Source: Acidiferrobacterales bacterium
GTDB taxonomy: Bacteria > Pseudomonadota > Gammaproteobacteria > Acidiferrobacterales > SPGG2
Assembly (NCBI GenBank): GCA_046760105.1
Contig: JBHIDJ010000006.1
Coordinates: 3,197 to 67,196, forward strand
Length of the DNA: 64,000 nt
Reading direction: 5' to 3'
Numbering within the stretch: the stretch's first letter is position 1; every line of letters starts with the position of its first letter. The position numbers and the translations under genes were made by a program. Positions 2,064 through 51,228 of this stretch are shown here, piece by piece. The notes under the pieces were generated by a model. The model had not been told where the DNA came from. It saw nothing but the letters and a program-made list of their open reading frames with translations, and ran no database searches.

Positions 2064-4502
<2,439 letters not shown>

Positions 4503-46311: not shown

Positions 46312-46411
46312 GATGCGCGAGGGCGTGACGGAATGCGAGACTCTCGGGGTTAAGTTGTTTTCCGTTTTCGTAGGTATTCGTAGTGATCAAGGTTGAGGGT
46401 TCTTTGCTTTG

Positions 46412-49123
46412 ATGAATAAGACCGGCAATACCAGAACTAAGCCATTCATTTTGGTCGATGGCTCATCGTATCTCTACCGCGCATTCCATGCCATGCCACA
46501 ACTGACGAATTCCCGTGGTGAACCGACGGGTGCGGTATACGGTATCACCAATATGTTGCGCAAGCTGCTCGCGGATTACGACCCGACGCATATCGCCGTA
46601 GTATTCGACGCTAAAGGCAAGACCTTCCGCGACGAGATCTACGCGGATTATAAGGCTAACCGACCACCTATGCCTGAGGAGCTTGCTGCCCAGATCGAAC
46701 CAATCCACGCCATCGTCCGCGCCATGGGGCTGCCGTTGCTCATCGTCGAAGGGGTCGAAGCGGATGATGTCATCGGCACCTTGGCGGCTGGGGCGGCCGA
46801 GCACGGCCTCGATACGCTAATCTCAACCGGTGACAAGGATATGGCGCAGCTGGTCAGCGACCACGTCGTTCTGATCAATACGATGACCGATACTCTATAC
46901 GATAAACAAGGTGTGCACGAAAAATTCGGCGTGCCACCAGAACATATGGTTGATTATCTCGCACTGATCGGCGACAGCGTGGACAACATACCTGGCGTGC
47001 CCAAGGTAGGGTCCAAGACCGCCGCCAAGTGGTTGCAAGAGTACGGTTCGCTGGACGAAATCGTCACCCACGCCGATGAGATCGGCGGAAAAGTGGGTGA
47101 TAATCTCCGCGCTTGTCTAGGGCAGCTGCCACTGTCGCGGCAACTCGTGACTGTTAAGTACGATGTACCGCTGGATCAGGGACCTGAGGCACTAACGCGC
47201 CAGCTACCGGATGAGGCGAAACTACGAGAGCTTTACACACGCCTGGAGTTCAAAACCTTGCTCGCCGAGCTCGTTGGCAGCGAACGGTCAGTGCAAGAGA
47301 ACGCACAGAGCATGGCGGCGCGCTATGAAACGATCTTCGATGACGAGCACCTCGATGACTGGATCGAACGTCTAAGGGTAGCCGGTCTGTTTGCGTTTGA
47401 TACGGAGACCACTGCTCTCGATGCGATGCGTGCTGAGCTTGTCGGCGTTTCATTCACGTACAAAGCGGGTGCCGGTGCATATGTTCCGGTTGGTCATGCG
47501 TATCCTGGTGTGGCCAAACAGCTCGACCGTGATCGTGTACTAAGCAAACTCAAGCCAATTCTGGAAGATCCGGCTAGCACCAAAGTTGGCCAAAACCTTA
47601 AGTATGACCTGATCGTCATGCACCGCTATGGCATCGAAGTTGCCGGCTTAGGATTCGACACTATGCTCGAGTCTTATGTGCTTAACAGTACGGCGTCGCG
47701 CCATGATATGGACAGTCTCGCATTGCGATATCTTGGCTATAAGACATTGAAATATGAGGAAGTGGCTGGCAAGGGCAAGGGCCAGATCAACTTTAGTGAG
47801 GTACCGGTGGAGCAAGCGGCTCCTTACGCTGCCGAGGATGCCGACGTGACGCTGCGACTGCACAAGGCTTTGTGGCCAAGACTGCAGGAGATAGCAAAGC
47901 TGAAGATGCTGTTCGAAGAGCTCGAAATGCCGCTAATACCCGTGCTCTCGCAGATGCAATGCACAGGCGTAAGGATAGATGCCGATATGTTAGCGTATCA
48001 GAGCAACGAGCTTGCACGGCGCATGTTGGAGCTCGAACGGGAGGCACACGAAACCGCTGGCCAGCCGTTCAATCTCGAGTCGCCGAAGCAAATCCAGGAG
48101 GTGTTATACGACAAACTTGGGCTGCCGGTGTTGAAGAAAACCCCAAAGGGGCAGCCGTCAACCGCTGAAGATGTCTTGCAGGAACTGGCGTTGGACTATC
48201 CGTTGCCAAGAATCATCCTCGAGTATCGCGGACTGAGCAAGCTCAAGTCCACCTATACCGATAAGCTGCCTGAGATGATCAACCCAGAGACCGGGCGCGT
48301 GCACACCTCTTACCACCAAGCCGTCGCGGCCACCGGCAGGTTGTCGTCGAGCGATCCCAATTTGCAAAACATCCCGGTGCGTACGGCCGAAGGGCGACGA
48401 ATCCGACGGGCGTTTATCGCTGATCAGGGTTGCAAGATATTATCCGCCGACTATTCGCAGATCGAATTACGCATTATGGCGCATCTGTCAGGCGATAACG
48501 GCCTGCAGCAAGCATTCGCCGAAGGCATGGACGTGCACCGCGCAACGGCGGCAGACGTGTTTGGGGTCGCGCCCGAGCTCGTCACGGATGAAATGCGCCG
48601 AAACGCCAAGGCCATCAACTTCGGTTTGATTTACGGCATGTCGGCATTTGGGCTGGCACGGCAATTGAAGGTTGATCGTAGCACCGCCCAACAATACGTC
48701 GATCTGTACTTCACCCGCTATCCCGGCGTGAAGGACTTCATGGACCACACACGCCAGCAGGCGCGTGAACAAGGATTTGTCGAGACCGTATTCGGGCGGC
48801 GCCTCTATGCACAGGACATCAACGCGAGCAACCAGGCGCGGCGCCAATATGCCGAGCGTGCCGCCATCAACGCCCCCATGCAAGGAACGGCCGCAGACCT
48901 CATCAAGCTCGCAATGCTGGCGGTAGATGTGTGGATTCGGGACGCCGGTGTAAGGGTGAAGATGATTATGCAGGTGCACGACGAGCTGGTGTTCGAGGTC
49001 GCCGAGCAGGAGGTGGAGAAGGCGTGTGAGAACATTCGGCGCTGTATGAGCGATGTCGCTACCCTCTCGGTCCCGTTAGTGGTCGATATCGGGGTCGGCG
49101 ATAATTGGGACGAGGCGCACTAG
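46412..49123 (+). CDS. polA: DNA polymerase I
   Basis: 5'-nuclease N-terminus (ILVDGSSYLYRAFHA), 3'-5' exo (FAFDTETT), and pol motifs DYSQIELRIMAHLS and QVHDELVFE. ATG 46412; the track uses TTG 46409. Confidence 0.98.
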   Translation: MNKTGNTRTKPFILVDGSSYLYRAFHAMPQLTNSRGEPTGAVYGITNMLRKLLADYDPTHIAVVFDAKGKTFRDEIYADYKANRPPMPEELAAQIEPIHAIVRAMGLPLLIVEGVEADDVIGTLAAGAAEHGLDTLISTGDKDMAQLVSDHVVLINTMTDTLYDKQGVHEKFGVPPEHMVDYLALIGDSVDNIPGVPKVGSKTAAKWLQEYGSLDEIVTHADEIGGKVGDNLRACLGQLPLSRQLVTVKYDVPLDQGPEALTRQLPDEAKLRELYTRLEFKTLLAELVGSERSVQENAQSMAARYETIFDDEHLDDWIERLRVAGLFAFDTETTALDAMRAELVGVSFTYKAGAGAYVPVGHAYPGVAKQLDRDRVLSKLKPILEDPASTKVGQNLKYDLIVMHRYGIEVAGLGFDTMLESYVLNSTASRHDMDSLALRYLGYKTLKYEEVAGKGKGQINFSEVPVEQAAPYAAEDADVTLRLHKALWPRLQEIAKLKMLFEELEMPLIPVLSQMQCTGVRIDADMLAYQSNELARRMLELEREAHETAGQPFNLESPKQIQEVLYDKLGLPVLKKTPKGQPSTAEDVLQELALDYPLPRIILEYRGLSKLKSTYTDKLPEMINPETGRVHTSYHQAVAATGRLSSSDPNLQNIPVRTAEGRRIRRAFIADQGCKILSADYSQIELRIMAHLSGDNGLQQAFAEGMDVHRATAADVFGVAPELVTDEMRRNAKAINFGLIYGMSAFGLARQLKVDRSTAQQYVDLYFTRYPGVKDFMDHTRQQAREQGFVETVFGRRLYAQDINASNQARRQYAERAAINAPMQGTAADLIKLAMLAVDVWIRDAGVRVKMIMQVHDELVFEVAEQEVEKACENIRRCMSDVATLSVPLVVDIGVGDNWDEAH

Positions 49124-49204
49124 CAAACTGGTTTCGCCTGGTAAGCGGGGAATGGCGTTATCCCATACGCTTGGTAGGGGATTCACTGATCATAAGCAGG
49201 GACC

Positions 49205-49231
49205 GAACTTCTGGCCACGACTCGGGTCTAT
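49205..49231 (+). promoter_or_regulatory. candidate ECF sigmaE/AlgU-type promoter
   Basis: GAACTT (49205-49210), 16-nt spacer, TCTAT (49227-49231). The known consensus is GAACTT-N16/17-TCtgA. It is the only GAACTT in the window followed by a TC-type -10 at this spacing. Confidence 0.45.
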
Positions 49232-49237
49232 ACACTC

Positions 49238-49360
49238 GGACGATCCTGGTGGATCGTCTTGCCCGCTCCTCCTCCCTGAGCGGGTAGTTCCTGGGCTTTT
49301 TCTTATGCAGGAACGGTTAGGCCCCGGGCTCTCTCCCCTTGTTTTCCGGGGCTTTTTTTT
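49238..49360 (+). ncRNA. candidate small RNA in the polA-engB spacer (Spot42/ErsA-position)
   Basis: Four consecutive hairpins. (1) gacgatcc/ggatcgtc, 49239-49258, 8 bp perfect. (2) cccgctc/gagcggg, 49262-49284, with loop CTCCTCCCT. (3) gttcctg/caggaac, 49287-49314. (4) gccccgg/ccggggc, 49321-49352, followed by T8 (49353-49360). No ORF. Confidence 0.45.
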
Positions 49361-49967
49361 AATCGCAGTCAGCCAGTTCCAGCCAACACCCCAGCACCTG
49401 CCGAGCGGTGTCGACACCTTGGCGCTTGAGCGAGGAGAAGCTCTGCACCGAAACGCCTACACCGAATACCTCCAGCGCGTGCTCCACCTCACGTAAGGCC
49501 GCGGCACGCCGCGCGCGCCTGAATTTGTCACTTTTGCAAAGCAGCACGTGCACTGGCATCGTGTTTGCCGTACACCACTGCAGCAGCGTCAGATCGTAGT
49601 CGGTAAGTGGGTGACGGATATCCATGACCAGCATAAGTCCGCGAAGCGAAGCGCGAGTCTGTAAGTACCGCGGAAGCGCGTGGTCCCAGCGACGCCTCAC
49701 GGTCGCCGGAGCACGTGCATAGCCAAAGCCAGGCAGATCCACCAGGCGGTGTGCGGCGTCCAGCGAGAACACATTGATCTCTCGCGTCCGACCAGGCGTT
49801 TTGCTCGTACGTGCGAGCGCTTTCTGCGCCGTGATCGTGTTAATGGCGCTCGATTTGCCGGCGTTGGAGCGGCCCGCGAAGGCTACCTCGGCACCGCAGT
49901 CAGGTGGCAACTGGGCGAGCGAGGCCACACCCAGGGTAAAGCGTGCGCGCGCAAAAGGATTCTTCAT
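49359..49967 (-). CDS. engB: ribosome biogenesis GTP-binding protein EngB/YihA
   Basis: EVAFAGRSNAGKSSAINTI (G1), DLPGFGYA (G3), LLCKSDK (G4). Start set to ATG 49967. Confidence 0.92.
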   Translation of the reverse strand: MKNPFARARFTLGVASLAQLPPDCGAEVAFAGRSNAGKSSAINTITAQKALARTSKTPGRTREINVFSLDAAHRLVDLPGFGYARAPATVRRRWDHALPRYLQTRASLRGLMLVMDIRHPLTDYDLTLLQWCTANTMPVHVLLCKSDKFRRARRAAALREVEHALEVFGVGVSVQSFSSLKRQGVDTARQVLGCWLELADCD

Positions 49968-50135
49968 GGACTCGCAAACCAAATTGACCACTAACCAAGC
50001 TGTTGGTATATAGGGCATCCATCCAACGCGGACATTGCTAACAGATTATACGGGTTACGTCGCTCGCCGCGTTTAGCGAACGCCATGTCGACGCAGGGGG
50101 TCTGGCTGGTTCACGTAACCTCGGGAGGAGCAAAG

Positions 50136-50741
50136 ATGAAAAACTGTGTCACCTTGGCGCTGGTATTTTGGCTGTCTGTCTCGCTCGGCATCGCCCAGGC
50201 GGCCGGAGATGCGGCCGCTGGCAAGGCCAAAGCTGCCCTGTGTGTGGCTTGCCACGGTCCCGACGGCAACAGCACGAATCCGGAGTGGCCCAACCTGGCG
50301 GGACAACATCCCGAATATACCGTTAAGCAACTGAAGGACTTCAAAGACGGCAGACGTGAGAACGAACTCATGTCGGGCATAGCGAAGGGACTGTCGGAAC
50401 AAGACATGGAAAATCTCGCCGCCTATTTCAGCGCACAACAACCAAAGGTTCTGGCTGTCGCGGACCTAGAGCGAACGAAGCGTGGCGAGCGGCTTTATCG
50501 CGGGGGCAACTCCGAGAGGGAGGTGTCGGCCTGCATGAGCTGCCATGGTCCGTCAGGACGAGGCATCCCACCACGGTTTCCACAGATCTCTGGCCAACAT
50601 GCGGCTTACACGGAGAAACAGCTACTCGCGTTTAAAGGCGGCAAGCGCACCAACGACTTCGAGATCATGAGACGGATTGCCTTTCGCATGTCCGAAGACG
50701 AAATCAAGGCAGTCGCGCAATACATGGCCGCTTTGTACTGA
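50136..50741 (+). CDS. dihaem cytochrome c4
   Basis: Signal peptide MKNCVTLALVFWLSVSLGIAQA. Two haem sites, CVACHGPDG and CMSCHGPSG. SD GGAGG upstream of ATG 50136. Confidence 0.9.
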   Translation: MKNCVTLALVFWLSVSLGIAQAAGDAAAGKAKAALCVACHGPDGNSTNPEWPNLAGQHPEYTVKQLKDFKDGRRENELMSGIAKGLSEQDMENLAAYFSAQQPKVLAVADLERTKRGERLYRGGNSEREVSACMSCHGPSGRGIPPRFPQISGQHAAYTEKQLLAFKGGKRTNDFEIMRRIAFRMSEDEIKAVAQYMAALY

Positions 50742-50991: not shown

Positions 50992-51228
50992 ATGCTGAGT
51001 CACATTGTCAATTTGGTGAGCGATTACGAACAGGACTACGGTTCGCGACCGAACCTGGTCTATATGAACGAGACCCACTACACCTACCTGCGCCAAGAGA
51101 TGCCGGGGGTAAGAGATCATAACGACGTAGTGGCGATCCTAGGTATTGATATTGCATTAAGCGATATCGCTGTTCGCCCGCACGTTGCGACGGTGCGGTA
51201 TACGGACGAGAACATTCTTGTGAGCTGA
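50992..51228 (+). CDS. hypothetical 78-aa protein (no family recognised)
   Basis: SD GGGGAGAGG at 50977-50985, then ATG 50992. Sequence MLSHIVNLVSDYEQDYGSRPNLVYMNETHYTYLRQEMPGVRDHNDVVAILGIDIALSDIAVRPHVATVRYTDENILVS. Flanked by a sigma-54 promoter and a rho-independent terminator. Confidence 0.6.
   Translation: MLSHIVNLVSDYEQDYGSRPNLVYMNETHYTYLRQEMPGVRDHNDVVAILGIDIALSDIAVRPHVATVRYTDENILVS

Follow-up and report, generated by a model that had tools for sequence, protein, structure and literature searches.

A Small RNA Gene of the anti-hemB/ncS04 Family in the polA-engB Spacer of an Acidiferrobacterales Genome

A Member of the anti-hemB Family between polA and engB

Does the spacer between polA and engB in a gammaproteobacterium of the Acidiferrobacterales hold a small RNA (sRNA) gene of its own and, if so, to which family does that gene belong? 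The spacer, 235 nucleotides (nt) long (positions 49124-49358), lies in a stretch of 64,000 nt from a metagenome-assembled genome, hereafter the window, between the polA stop codon (49121-49123) and the stop codon of engB on the minus strand (49359-49361). In Escherichia coli the Spot 42 gene, spf, is found between polA and yihA/engB, convergent with engB, and the sRNA ErsA of Pseudomonas aeruginosa is likewise encoded between polA and engB (PMC8575079). The window RNA described here has the same location and the same polA-sRNA-yihA synteny, as an earlier note on this DNA had recognized. That note had proposed an independent sRNA gene under a sigma-E/AlgU-type promoter, and had taken it for a positional, and possibly functional, analogue of these two RNAs with a diverged sequence.

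The RNA is instead a member of a described family. The anti-hemB model of Rfam (RF02837) matches positions 49260-49360 of the plus strand over its whole length (model positions 1-81 of 81), with 52.3 bits against a gathering threshold of 49.5 bits (E = 2.5e-09), and this is the sole gathering-level Rfam match in the whole 64-kilobase (kb) window. The family signature CCCGCu-UCuCCUCCCUG-aGCGGG is present, and after it come another hairpin and then the terminator hairpin, which ends in a U-tail; the adjacent hemB on the other strand, to which the family owes its name, is not the neighbor here, where the upstream gene is polA. Weinberg et al. (2007) reported the anti-hemB RNA as a candidate noncoding RNA of Betaproteobacteria that ends in a terminator (PMC1950547). 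In Burkholderia cenocepacia J2315 this RNA is ncS04, a 105-nt transcript with mapped start and terminator, a Northern signal and copurification with Hfq, located between BCAL0264 and BCAL0265 in the arrangement '<- -> <-' (PMC4603805, PMC5688073). The window RNA is an independent sRNA gene of this anti-hemB/ncS04 family. It shares with anti-hemB and ncS04 the hairpin 2 signature, hairpin 3, the terminator, the layout with a 5' hairpin, a convergent engB followed by a cytochrome c4 gene and, where beta-type loci (see below) are compared, the type of promoter. The differences concern the host (a gammaproteobacterium rather than a betaproteobacterium), the upstream neighbor (polA rather than a divergent hemB), the length (123 nt against 105 nt for ncS04, the hairpin 3 and terminator loops being longer in the window) and the -10 element (TCTAT). 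A member in the Acidiferrobacterales, with polA and not hemB upstream, is new for the family.

The predicted sRNA of about 123 nt (49238-49360, plus strand), supported by the RF02837 match, the fold and a covariance model, forms four hairpins with a minimum free energy of -55.9 kcal/mol (z = -4.27; none of 200 shuffles is as stable). Hairpin 1 (49238-49259) has 9 base pairs (bp), all of them with compensatory changes in relatives, and a UGGU loop. Hairpin 2 (49260-49286), recognized by both model alignment and fold, carries the family signature as CCCGCUC-CUCCUCCCU-GAGCGGG; its loop CUCCUCCCU (49269-49277) and the stem bases 49267-49268 together yield the exact anti-Shine-Dalgarno (anti-SD) sequence CCUCCUCCC at 49267-49275. 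Hairpin 3 (49287-49314) consists of 7 bp, all covarying, and a 14-nt loop, which is U-rich in the window and C-rich in many relatives. Hairpin 4 and its U8 tail (49319-49360), with the C-rich loop CUCUCUCCCCUUGUUU, constitute a Rho-independent terminator according to a terminator scan, the fold and covarying pairs, and the T8 run (49353-49360) shares 2 nt with the engB stop codon. The GAACTT-N16-TCTAT motif, the four hairpins and the T8 run over the engB stop thus all lie where they had been placed before, and the C-rich anti-SD loops noted at the time are present in hairpin 2 and in the terminator.

Conservation and Covariation in Relatives

The wider relatives with which the spacer was compared were picked via EngB, so that the sample is unbiased towards the RNA. 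The nearest species-level genomes are Gammaproteobacteria with an EngB 44-61% identical to that of the window. In relatives with EngB 46-68% identical, the promoter hexamers, their spacing and the four hairpins are kept, and the other spacer sequence is not conserved. The Acidiferrobacterales relatives (L026-L031, EngB 58-68% identical) have the gene order hemL, a 78-amino acid (aa) open reading frame (ORF), cytochrome c4, engB, spacer and polA, and the 80-170 nt from their polA stop to the -35 element are unalignable. In these genomes GAACTT-N16-TCTAT is kept (TCTTT in L030), hairpin 1 shows compensatory changes, hairpin 2 is identical (L026, L028, L030), hairpin 3 is variable and the terminator loop CUCUCUCCCCUUGUUU is the same. 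Promoter and hairpins kept beside an unalignable upstream spacer are what one expects of a gene in its own right, transcribed from a promoter of its own; a loss of both in close relatives, which the earlier note had named as evidence that would speak against its proposal, is not seen.

An sRNA-like element convergent with engB is present in 14 of 22 genome loci, and all 16 gammaproteobacterial sequences that were folded singly give the same four-hairpin layout. The RF02837 threshold is also passed by L016, L017 and L041, with others scoring below it (32.7 bits in L022, 27.7 bits in L001); the Rfam model captures the gammaproteobacterial diversity of the family only partly. A plain MAFFT alignment with RNAalifold gave no usable consensus, the stems being too diverged, and in its place we used a covariance model (R1) for which the window sequence was the sole input. 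Full-length R1 matches occur in 17 genome loci, namely the window itself, 15 further loci and a Thiorhodospira locus (L004, 5223-5346, 19.6 bits) that we reject as a probable false positive, having C-rich repeats only and neither promoter nor terminator. In the R1 alignment of the genome loci (A5), standard pairs fill 95.3% of the cells as against 62.6% in shuffles, all 33 pairs have changes on both sides, and none of 500 shuffles reaches any of the observed measures; when the 3' partners are slid as a control, pairing falls to 34-49%. The covariation that the earlier note had suggested looking for in the spacer is therefore found in every pair.

A metagenome scan for the hairpin 2 signature yielded at least 120 loci, and R1 matches at full length in 94 of the first 100. 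In the alignment of these 94 sequences (A6), 93.7% of the cells are paired as against 71.6% in shuffles; hairpins 1, 3 and 4 covary strongly, and hairpin 2 is invariant because the loci were selected by its signature. Hairpin 3 is paired in 96.3% of the A5 cells, and hairpin 1 in 92.5% (A5) and 93.2% (A6). The Rfam model begins at hairpin 2, and the 5' hairpin 1 is present and covarying in about 110 sequences. Judged by these alignments, the curated RF02837 model is 5'-truncated and hairpin 1 clearly belongs to the RNA. A BLASTN search of the RNA against plasmids found no match.

Repeat elements are present in the spacers of two relatives. In L001, about 250 nt with a long perfect inverted repeat (CCCCGAATCGTGTGGGTGAAATGGTAAATCATCCTTGACAGGCGGAATGCACGC ... 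reverse complement), resembling a miniature inverted-repeat transposable element, lie between the sRNA terminator and engB. In L030 the stretch that separates the polA stop from the sRNA promoter contains a palindromic element of about 100 nt (GTAGGGTGGTGCCCTGCCCCACCGA ... TCGGTGGGGCAGGGCCCCACCCTAC; 3300-3440, minus strand), which the window lacks.

A Conserved Promoter of the Sigma-E Type

Upstream of the RNA, on the plus strand, lie a -35 element GAACTT (49205-49210) of the sigma-E/AlgU type (extracytoplasmic function [ECF] class ECF02) and, after a 16-nt spacer, a -10 element TCTAT (49227-49231). The motif alone is not beyond chance in the window, GAACTT-N16-TCT occurring once in 64 kb with 0.3 matches expected and at least once in 25 of 100 shuffles; its significance comes from conservation. 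In an alignment of 9 diverged relatives that takes in the promoter, GAACT and GTCT are invariant, at identical spacing and without intervening gaps, and no other column upstream of the RNA is invariant. Among the metagenomic members, at least 83 of 120 have a GAACnn-N15-17-TCnnA motif 5-9 nt before hairpin 1 (this and all further counts on promoters and flanks of metagenomic loci apply among the matches listed). The family consensus, drawn from 82 distinct sequences, reads G(84%)GAACTT, N16 (in 66/83) and TCTtA, and its leading G, 84% conserved, played no part in promoter scoring or selection.

The published form of RpoE/AlgU promoters is GAACTT-16/17-TCnnA, and GTCTAT is listed as the -10 element of a putative, motif-predicted RpoE-dependent rpoH promoter in Shewanella (PMC4336711). 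GAACTT-N16-TCTAT of the window agrees with the RpoE/AlgU form GGAACTT-16/17-TCnnA, with a start about 6 nt downstream. With the motif conserved at a fixed distance from hairpin 1, the sigma-E/AlgU-type promoter proposed earlier holds, and the sRNA gene would be controlled by a factor of this type. The start site can be placed by homology. The Burkholderia-type member L123 has an aligned length of 105 nt, which is the published length of ncS04, so that the mapped start, 5-6 nt downstream of the -10 element, coincides with the base of hairpin 1; transcription in the window would then begin at about 49237-49238.

The Conserved Neighbor Is engB, Not hemB

If hemB is not the neighbor of the RNA in the window, which gene accompanies the family? 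According to tblastn searches of the flanks, nearly all sigma-E-type metagenomic loci have engB convergent and immediately downstream, and a cytochrome c4 gene follows it. In about 20 loci (gamma type) polA lies upstream, on the strand of the sRNA; the remaining loci (beta type) have there a divergent gene of 335 aa, identified as hemB by the match of its N-terminus to Pfam ALAD. Counted over the sigma-E-type members with enough flank, 63 of 71 have a convergent engB downstream and 8 have no engB, as against 6 with and 18 without it when the promoter is of another kind; the association of the sigma-E-like promoter with a convergent engB is significant (Fisher's exact test, p = 1e-8). Since hemB stands upstream in the beta type only and engB is common to both types, the conserved syntenic anchor is engB, and hemB is a lineage-specific neighbor that does not define the family. 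The sRNA, engB and the cytochrome c gene form a conserved block. Moreover, because hemB is divergent in the beta type, read-through cannot supply the RNA there.

A second subfamily is not linked to engB and has a sigma-70-like TTGnnn-N17-TAnATT promoter and a distinctive hairpin 3, GCCUUGAUGUGUGACAGCAAAAAGGC (loci L122, L126, L131, L136, L139, L143, L148, L150, L154, L169, L195, L209, L233 and L239). Thus, at least once within the family, the promoter was exchanged and the gene changed its place.

Relationship to ErsA, Spot 42 and Other C-Rich-Loop RNAs

How, then, does the window RNA relate to the two sRNAs known from the same genomic position? The Rfam comparison suggested in the earlier note was negative for both. 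The ErsA model (Pseudomon-1, RF01719) gives 13.1 bits against a threshold of 50 (E = 2-4), with only the terminator and a short UCCU stretch aligned, and the Spot 42 model (RF00021) has no match at E<=10 in the spacer; by the same method Spot_42 scores 109 bits in Aeromonas, next to engB. Nor is there a Pseudomon-1 hit in L001, L006, L009, L014 or L022. R1 in turn reaches 6.5 bits on spf, and nothing is alike beyond a GC-rich terminator. Spot 42 differs from the window RNA also in its promoter, which is under sigma-70/CRP control, in its seeds, which are U-rich and single-stranded, and in carrying a small ORF, spfP.

The resemblance to ErsA goes further. ErsA is 132 nt long and dependent on sigma-22 (PMC5819304), and is laid out as stem-loop 1 (SL1), a U-rich unstructured region, SL2 and SL3, with a CCU-containing stretch just after SL1 that pairs with ribosome-binding sites (PMC13613067). 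The two RNAs are alike in promoter class (sigma-22/AlgU type, in the window as judged by the conserved motif), and both are sRNAs of the Hfq type. The Rfam consensus of ErsA and the window RNA also have in common a GCUCCU anti-SD element after the 5' hairpin, and a terminator with a CCCCGG/CCGGGG stem and a C-rich loop (CCCUCCCC and CUCCCC, respectively). Between SL1 and SL2, however, the place of the U-rich single-stranded seed of ErsA (nt 26-56) is taken in the window RNA by the stable hairpin 2 with its C-rich loop. The orientation of ersA is presumably that of the window sRNA. With locus, promoter class and terminator alike and the orientation probably the same, common descent of ErsA and anti-hemB is plausible, if just short of a conclusion we would favor. 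With a search pattern taken from the consensus of ErsA there was one match, attributable to chance, and a scan of viral contigs with an EngB alignment returned two irrelevant loci.

In a wider scenario, which we advance only tentatively, the engB-convergent sRNA locus would be one ancient locus predating the split of Beta- and Gammaproteobacteria, at which anti-hemB/ncS04, ErsA and possibly Spot 42 (through a promoter switch) would be diverged orthologs. No sRNA was found next to engB in the Neisseria and Acinetobacter chromosomes contained in the plasmid collection. Several multi-megabase 'plasmids' of that collection, PLSDB (NZ_CP119142.1, NZ_CP077849.1, NZ_AP026896.1 and others), are evidently mislabelled chromosomes, of Neisseria gonorrhoeae, Acinetobacter baumannii, Aeromonas caviae, E. 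coli and Proteus.

Below threshold, the window RNA also resembles Betaproteobacteria toxic sRNA (18.9 bits), ar14 (17.9 bits) and sX13 (17.3 bits), whose thresholds are 50-59 bits, as well as 6C, all of them at 17-19 bits. These weak matches reflect a shared C-rich-loop design and not membership. The 'cuckoo' CCUCCUCCC sRNAs (alpha-r14/NfeR1, CcsR/RSs0680), toxic sRNA and sX13 have tandem hairpins with C-rich anti-SD loops, as does the window RNA, and CCUCCUCCC loops are anti-SD modules (PMC4615179). In the cuckoo/alpha-r14/toxic class, however, every one of the 2-4 loops bears this sequence, whereas the window RNA has the full CCUCCUCCC in hairpin 2 only; genomic context and promoter differ from those of the cuckoo, toxic and sX13 sRNAs too. 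In viral or proviral contigs of IMG/VR (L058/L066, L094, L102/L104/L112) we observed CCGCU..CCUCCCUGAGCGG hairpins followed by terminator-like hairpins amid unrelated flanks, which may be phage-borne, cuckoo-like anti-SD RNAs.

Proposed Mechanism and Alternative Explanations

What might the RNA do? We consider it probable that the gene specifies a trans-acting sRNA of the anti-hemB/ncS04 family, with its own sigma-E-type promoter and of the Hfq type, whose C-rich loops pair with SD regions. Judging from the conserved motif, an ECF factor of the sigma-E/AlgU type would transcribe it from about 49238, and envelope or extracytoplasmic stress would probably induce it. The transcript would end at hairpin 4 and U8, the usual Hfq-binding module, Hfq binding being known from the ncS04 homolog. 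The C-rich loops, chiefly the invariant CCUCCUCCC of hairpin 2, which is a copy of the anti-SD of 16S ribosomal RNA, would then most likely pair with G-rich SD regions, and the CUCCCC displayed by the terminator loop would likewise pair with G-rich ribosome-binding sites. Pairing with the SD would block translation of target messenger RNAs (mRNAs), by analogy with ErsA, cuckoo/alpha-r14 and sX13-type RNAs (PMC4615179, PMC13613067), from which we infer both the anti-SD mechanism and the targeting of ribosome-binding sites. Within the window, the only well-placed 8-nt complement of the loop is the SD of the cytochrome c4 gene, GGGAGGAG (50123-50130, plus strand), which lies 5 nt before the ATG and is perfectly complementary to the hairpin 2 loop.

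A number of observations weigh against this interpretation. The target scan of the window found no conserved target, the GGGAGGAG site not being conserved in L026, L028 or L030. The -10 element of the window, TCTAT, ends in T, where the base typical of the family is A, and a tblastn search with an E. coli RpoE query found no rpoE orthologue in the window. In B. cenocepacia, quantitative polymerase chain reaction gave no significant change of ncS04 in seven conditions, among them osmotic stress and low pH (PMC5688073). The stem of hairpin 2 is conserved in sequence beyond the needs of pairing, which could indicate a protein partner. Lastly, A5 and A6 were obtained by fitting to the structure of the model, towards which they therefore lean; the single-sequence folds of the 16 sequences are independent of the A5 fitting.

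The protein partner leads to an alternative scenario, in which a genuine sRNA acts through a protein or the ribosome, either titrating an RNA-binding protein at the CCGCU...CCCUGAGCGG hairpin or occupying many SDs globally in the manner of 'toxic sRNAs'. The near invariance of the hairpin 2 stem across beta and gamma lineages would agree with it, as would the likeness to toxic sRNA, sX13 and 6C; none of these similarities comes near threshold, however, and comparable sRNAs with C-rich loops, where studied (ErsA, alpha-r14/NfeR1, sX13), have defined mRNAs as their targets (PMC13613067, PMC4615179), so that we regard this scenario as quite unlikely. Still more must be asked of the idea that the hairpins are merely the terminator region of polA (and engB), or a processed fragment of the polA 3' untranslated region (3'UTR) without a promoter of its own. 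The terminator scan found no intrinsic terminator between the polA stop and the element, and because none separates them hairpin 4 with U8 probably also ends polA read-through. Yet termination has no need of three extra covarying hairpins and an invariant loop, the promoter motif is kept at a fixed distance while the remaining 3'UTR is not, the same RNA occurs in beta-type loci, where a divergent hemB is the upstream gene, and ncS04 has its own mapped transcription start (PMC4603805). We consider this explanation highly improbable.

The constant company of engB raises the further question of whether the element acts mainly in cis, with convergent transcription, or a perfectly complementary overlap of the sRNA with read-through transcripts of engB, setting the 3'-end formation or stability of engB and thereby keeping the RNA gene beside it. 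Besides the 63 of 71 sigma-E-type members with engB convergent directly downstream, the same arrangement is found for spf in E. coli and Aeromonas and, with orientation presumed, for ersA at its polA-engB position (PMC8575079). The engB stop codon overlaps the U-tail of the sRNA, and since no U-run follows the terminator hairpin on the minus strand, transcription of engB may continue across the sRNA gene in antisense. On the other hand, the overlap with the engB coding region is 2 nt only; the distance between sRNA and engB varies from about 70 to 460 nt, with an insertion between them in L001; the RNA is retained without an adjacent engB in L138, L237 and L177; the subfamily unlinked to engB retains hairpin 2 and the overall fold; and the invariant anti-SD loop would be left unexplained. 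A cis contribution on engB may exist, but as the main function it seems unlikely to us, and the trans-acting sRNA with anti-SD loops remains the reading that we prefer.

Flanking Genes and Further Features of the Locus

The flanking genes had been named correctly in the earlier note and are confirmed by NCBIfam. Upstream and on the strand of the sRNA lies polA (46409-49123, plus strand; NF004397, 1238 bits). Convergent with the sRNA is engB, or yihA (49359-50018, minus strand; TIGR03598, 1e-64), and divergent from engB follows a dihaem cytochrome c4-like gene (50136-50741, plus strand; NCBIfam dihaem cytochrome c). The EngB protein is 100% identical to one from a metagenome-assembled genome of the Acidiferrobacterales. 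The longest ORF of engB has 219 aa, and the deposited protein has 202 aa with its start at 49967; in L028 engB is called at 215 aa, its 3' end overlapping the sRNA terminator. A further ORF, of 78 aa (50992-51228, plus strand) and without a recorded Pfam hit, lies between the cytochrome c4 gene and hemL and is kept in all Acidiferrobacterales relatives examined (L023 48-284, L026 1198-1434, L028 1186-1422, L030 1006-1242).

Of the earlier description of the spacer as 235 nt free of ORFs, the length is right and the absence of ORFs calls for a qualification, as three mechanical ORFs cross it (49105-49287 and 49152-49496 on the plus strand, 49190-49417 on the minus strand); they have no Pfam match, and the sequence they would need is not conserved in relatives. 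A small peptide, by analogy with SpfP, was considered and rejected: neither the AUG at 49305 nor the GUG in the loop of hairpin 1 is conserved in L026 and L030. Inside the sRNA promoter region, on the minus strand (49217-49189), a sigma-70-like TGGCCA-17-TATGAT is directed at polA; with 1 match against 0.3 expected, its occurrence is near chance.

Implications for the anti-hemB Family

For the window itself, the result amounts to a routine annotation, by which a known family gains a member. The family has been an orphan since 2007, and a 2026 preprint still takes anti-hemB for an antisense regulator of hemB. The comparative data point away from hemB, with engB as the partner, a promoter mostly of the RpoE/AlgU type and the locus of ErsA and Spot 42. 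Three features of anti-hemB appear to be unreported in the open literature that can be searched: its sigma-E-type promoter, its anchoring to engB at the locus of ErsA and Spot 42, and the 5' hairpin missing from the Rfam model. For Burkholderia pathogens a hypothesis follows that can be tested directly, namely that anti-hemB belongs to the envelope-stress regulon. One could also study here how an sRNA locus persists amid remodelled sequence, seed and promoter. If the scenario of one ancient locus is true, anti-hemB would be an unrecognized sigma-E/envelope-stress sRNA of the Burkholderiales and of many non-enteric Gammaproteobacteria.

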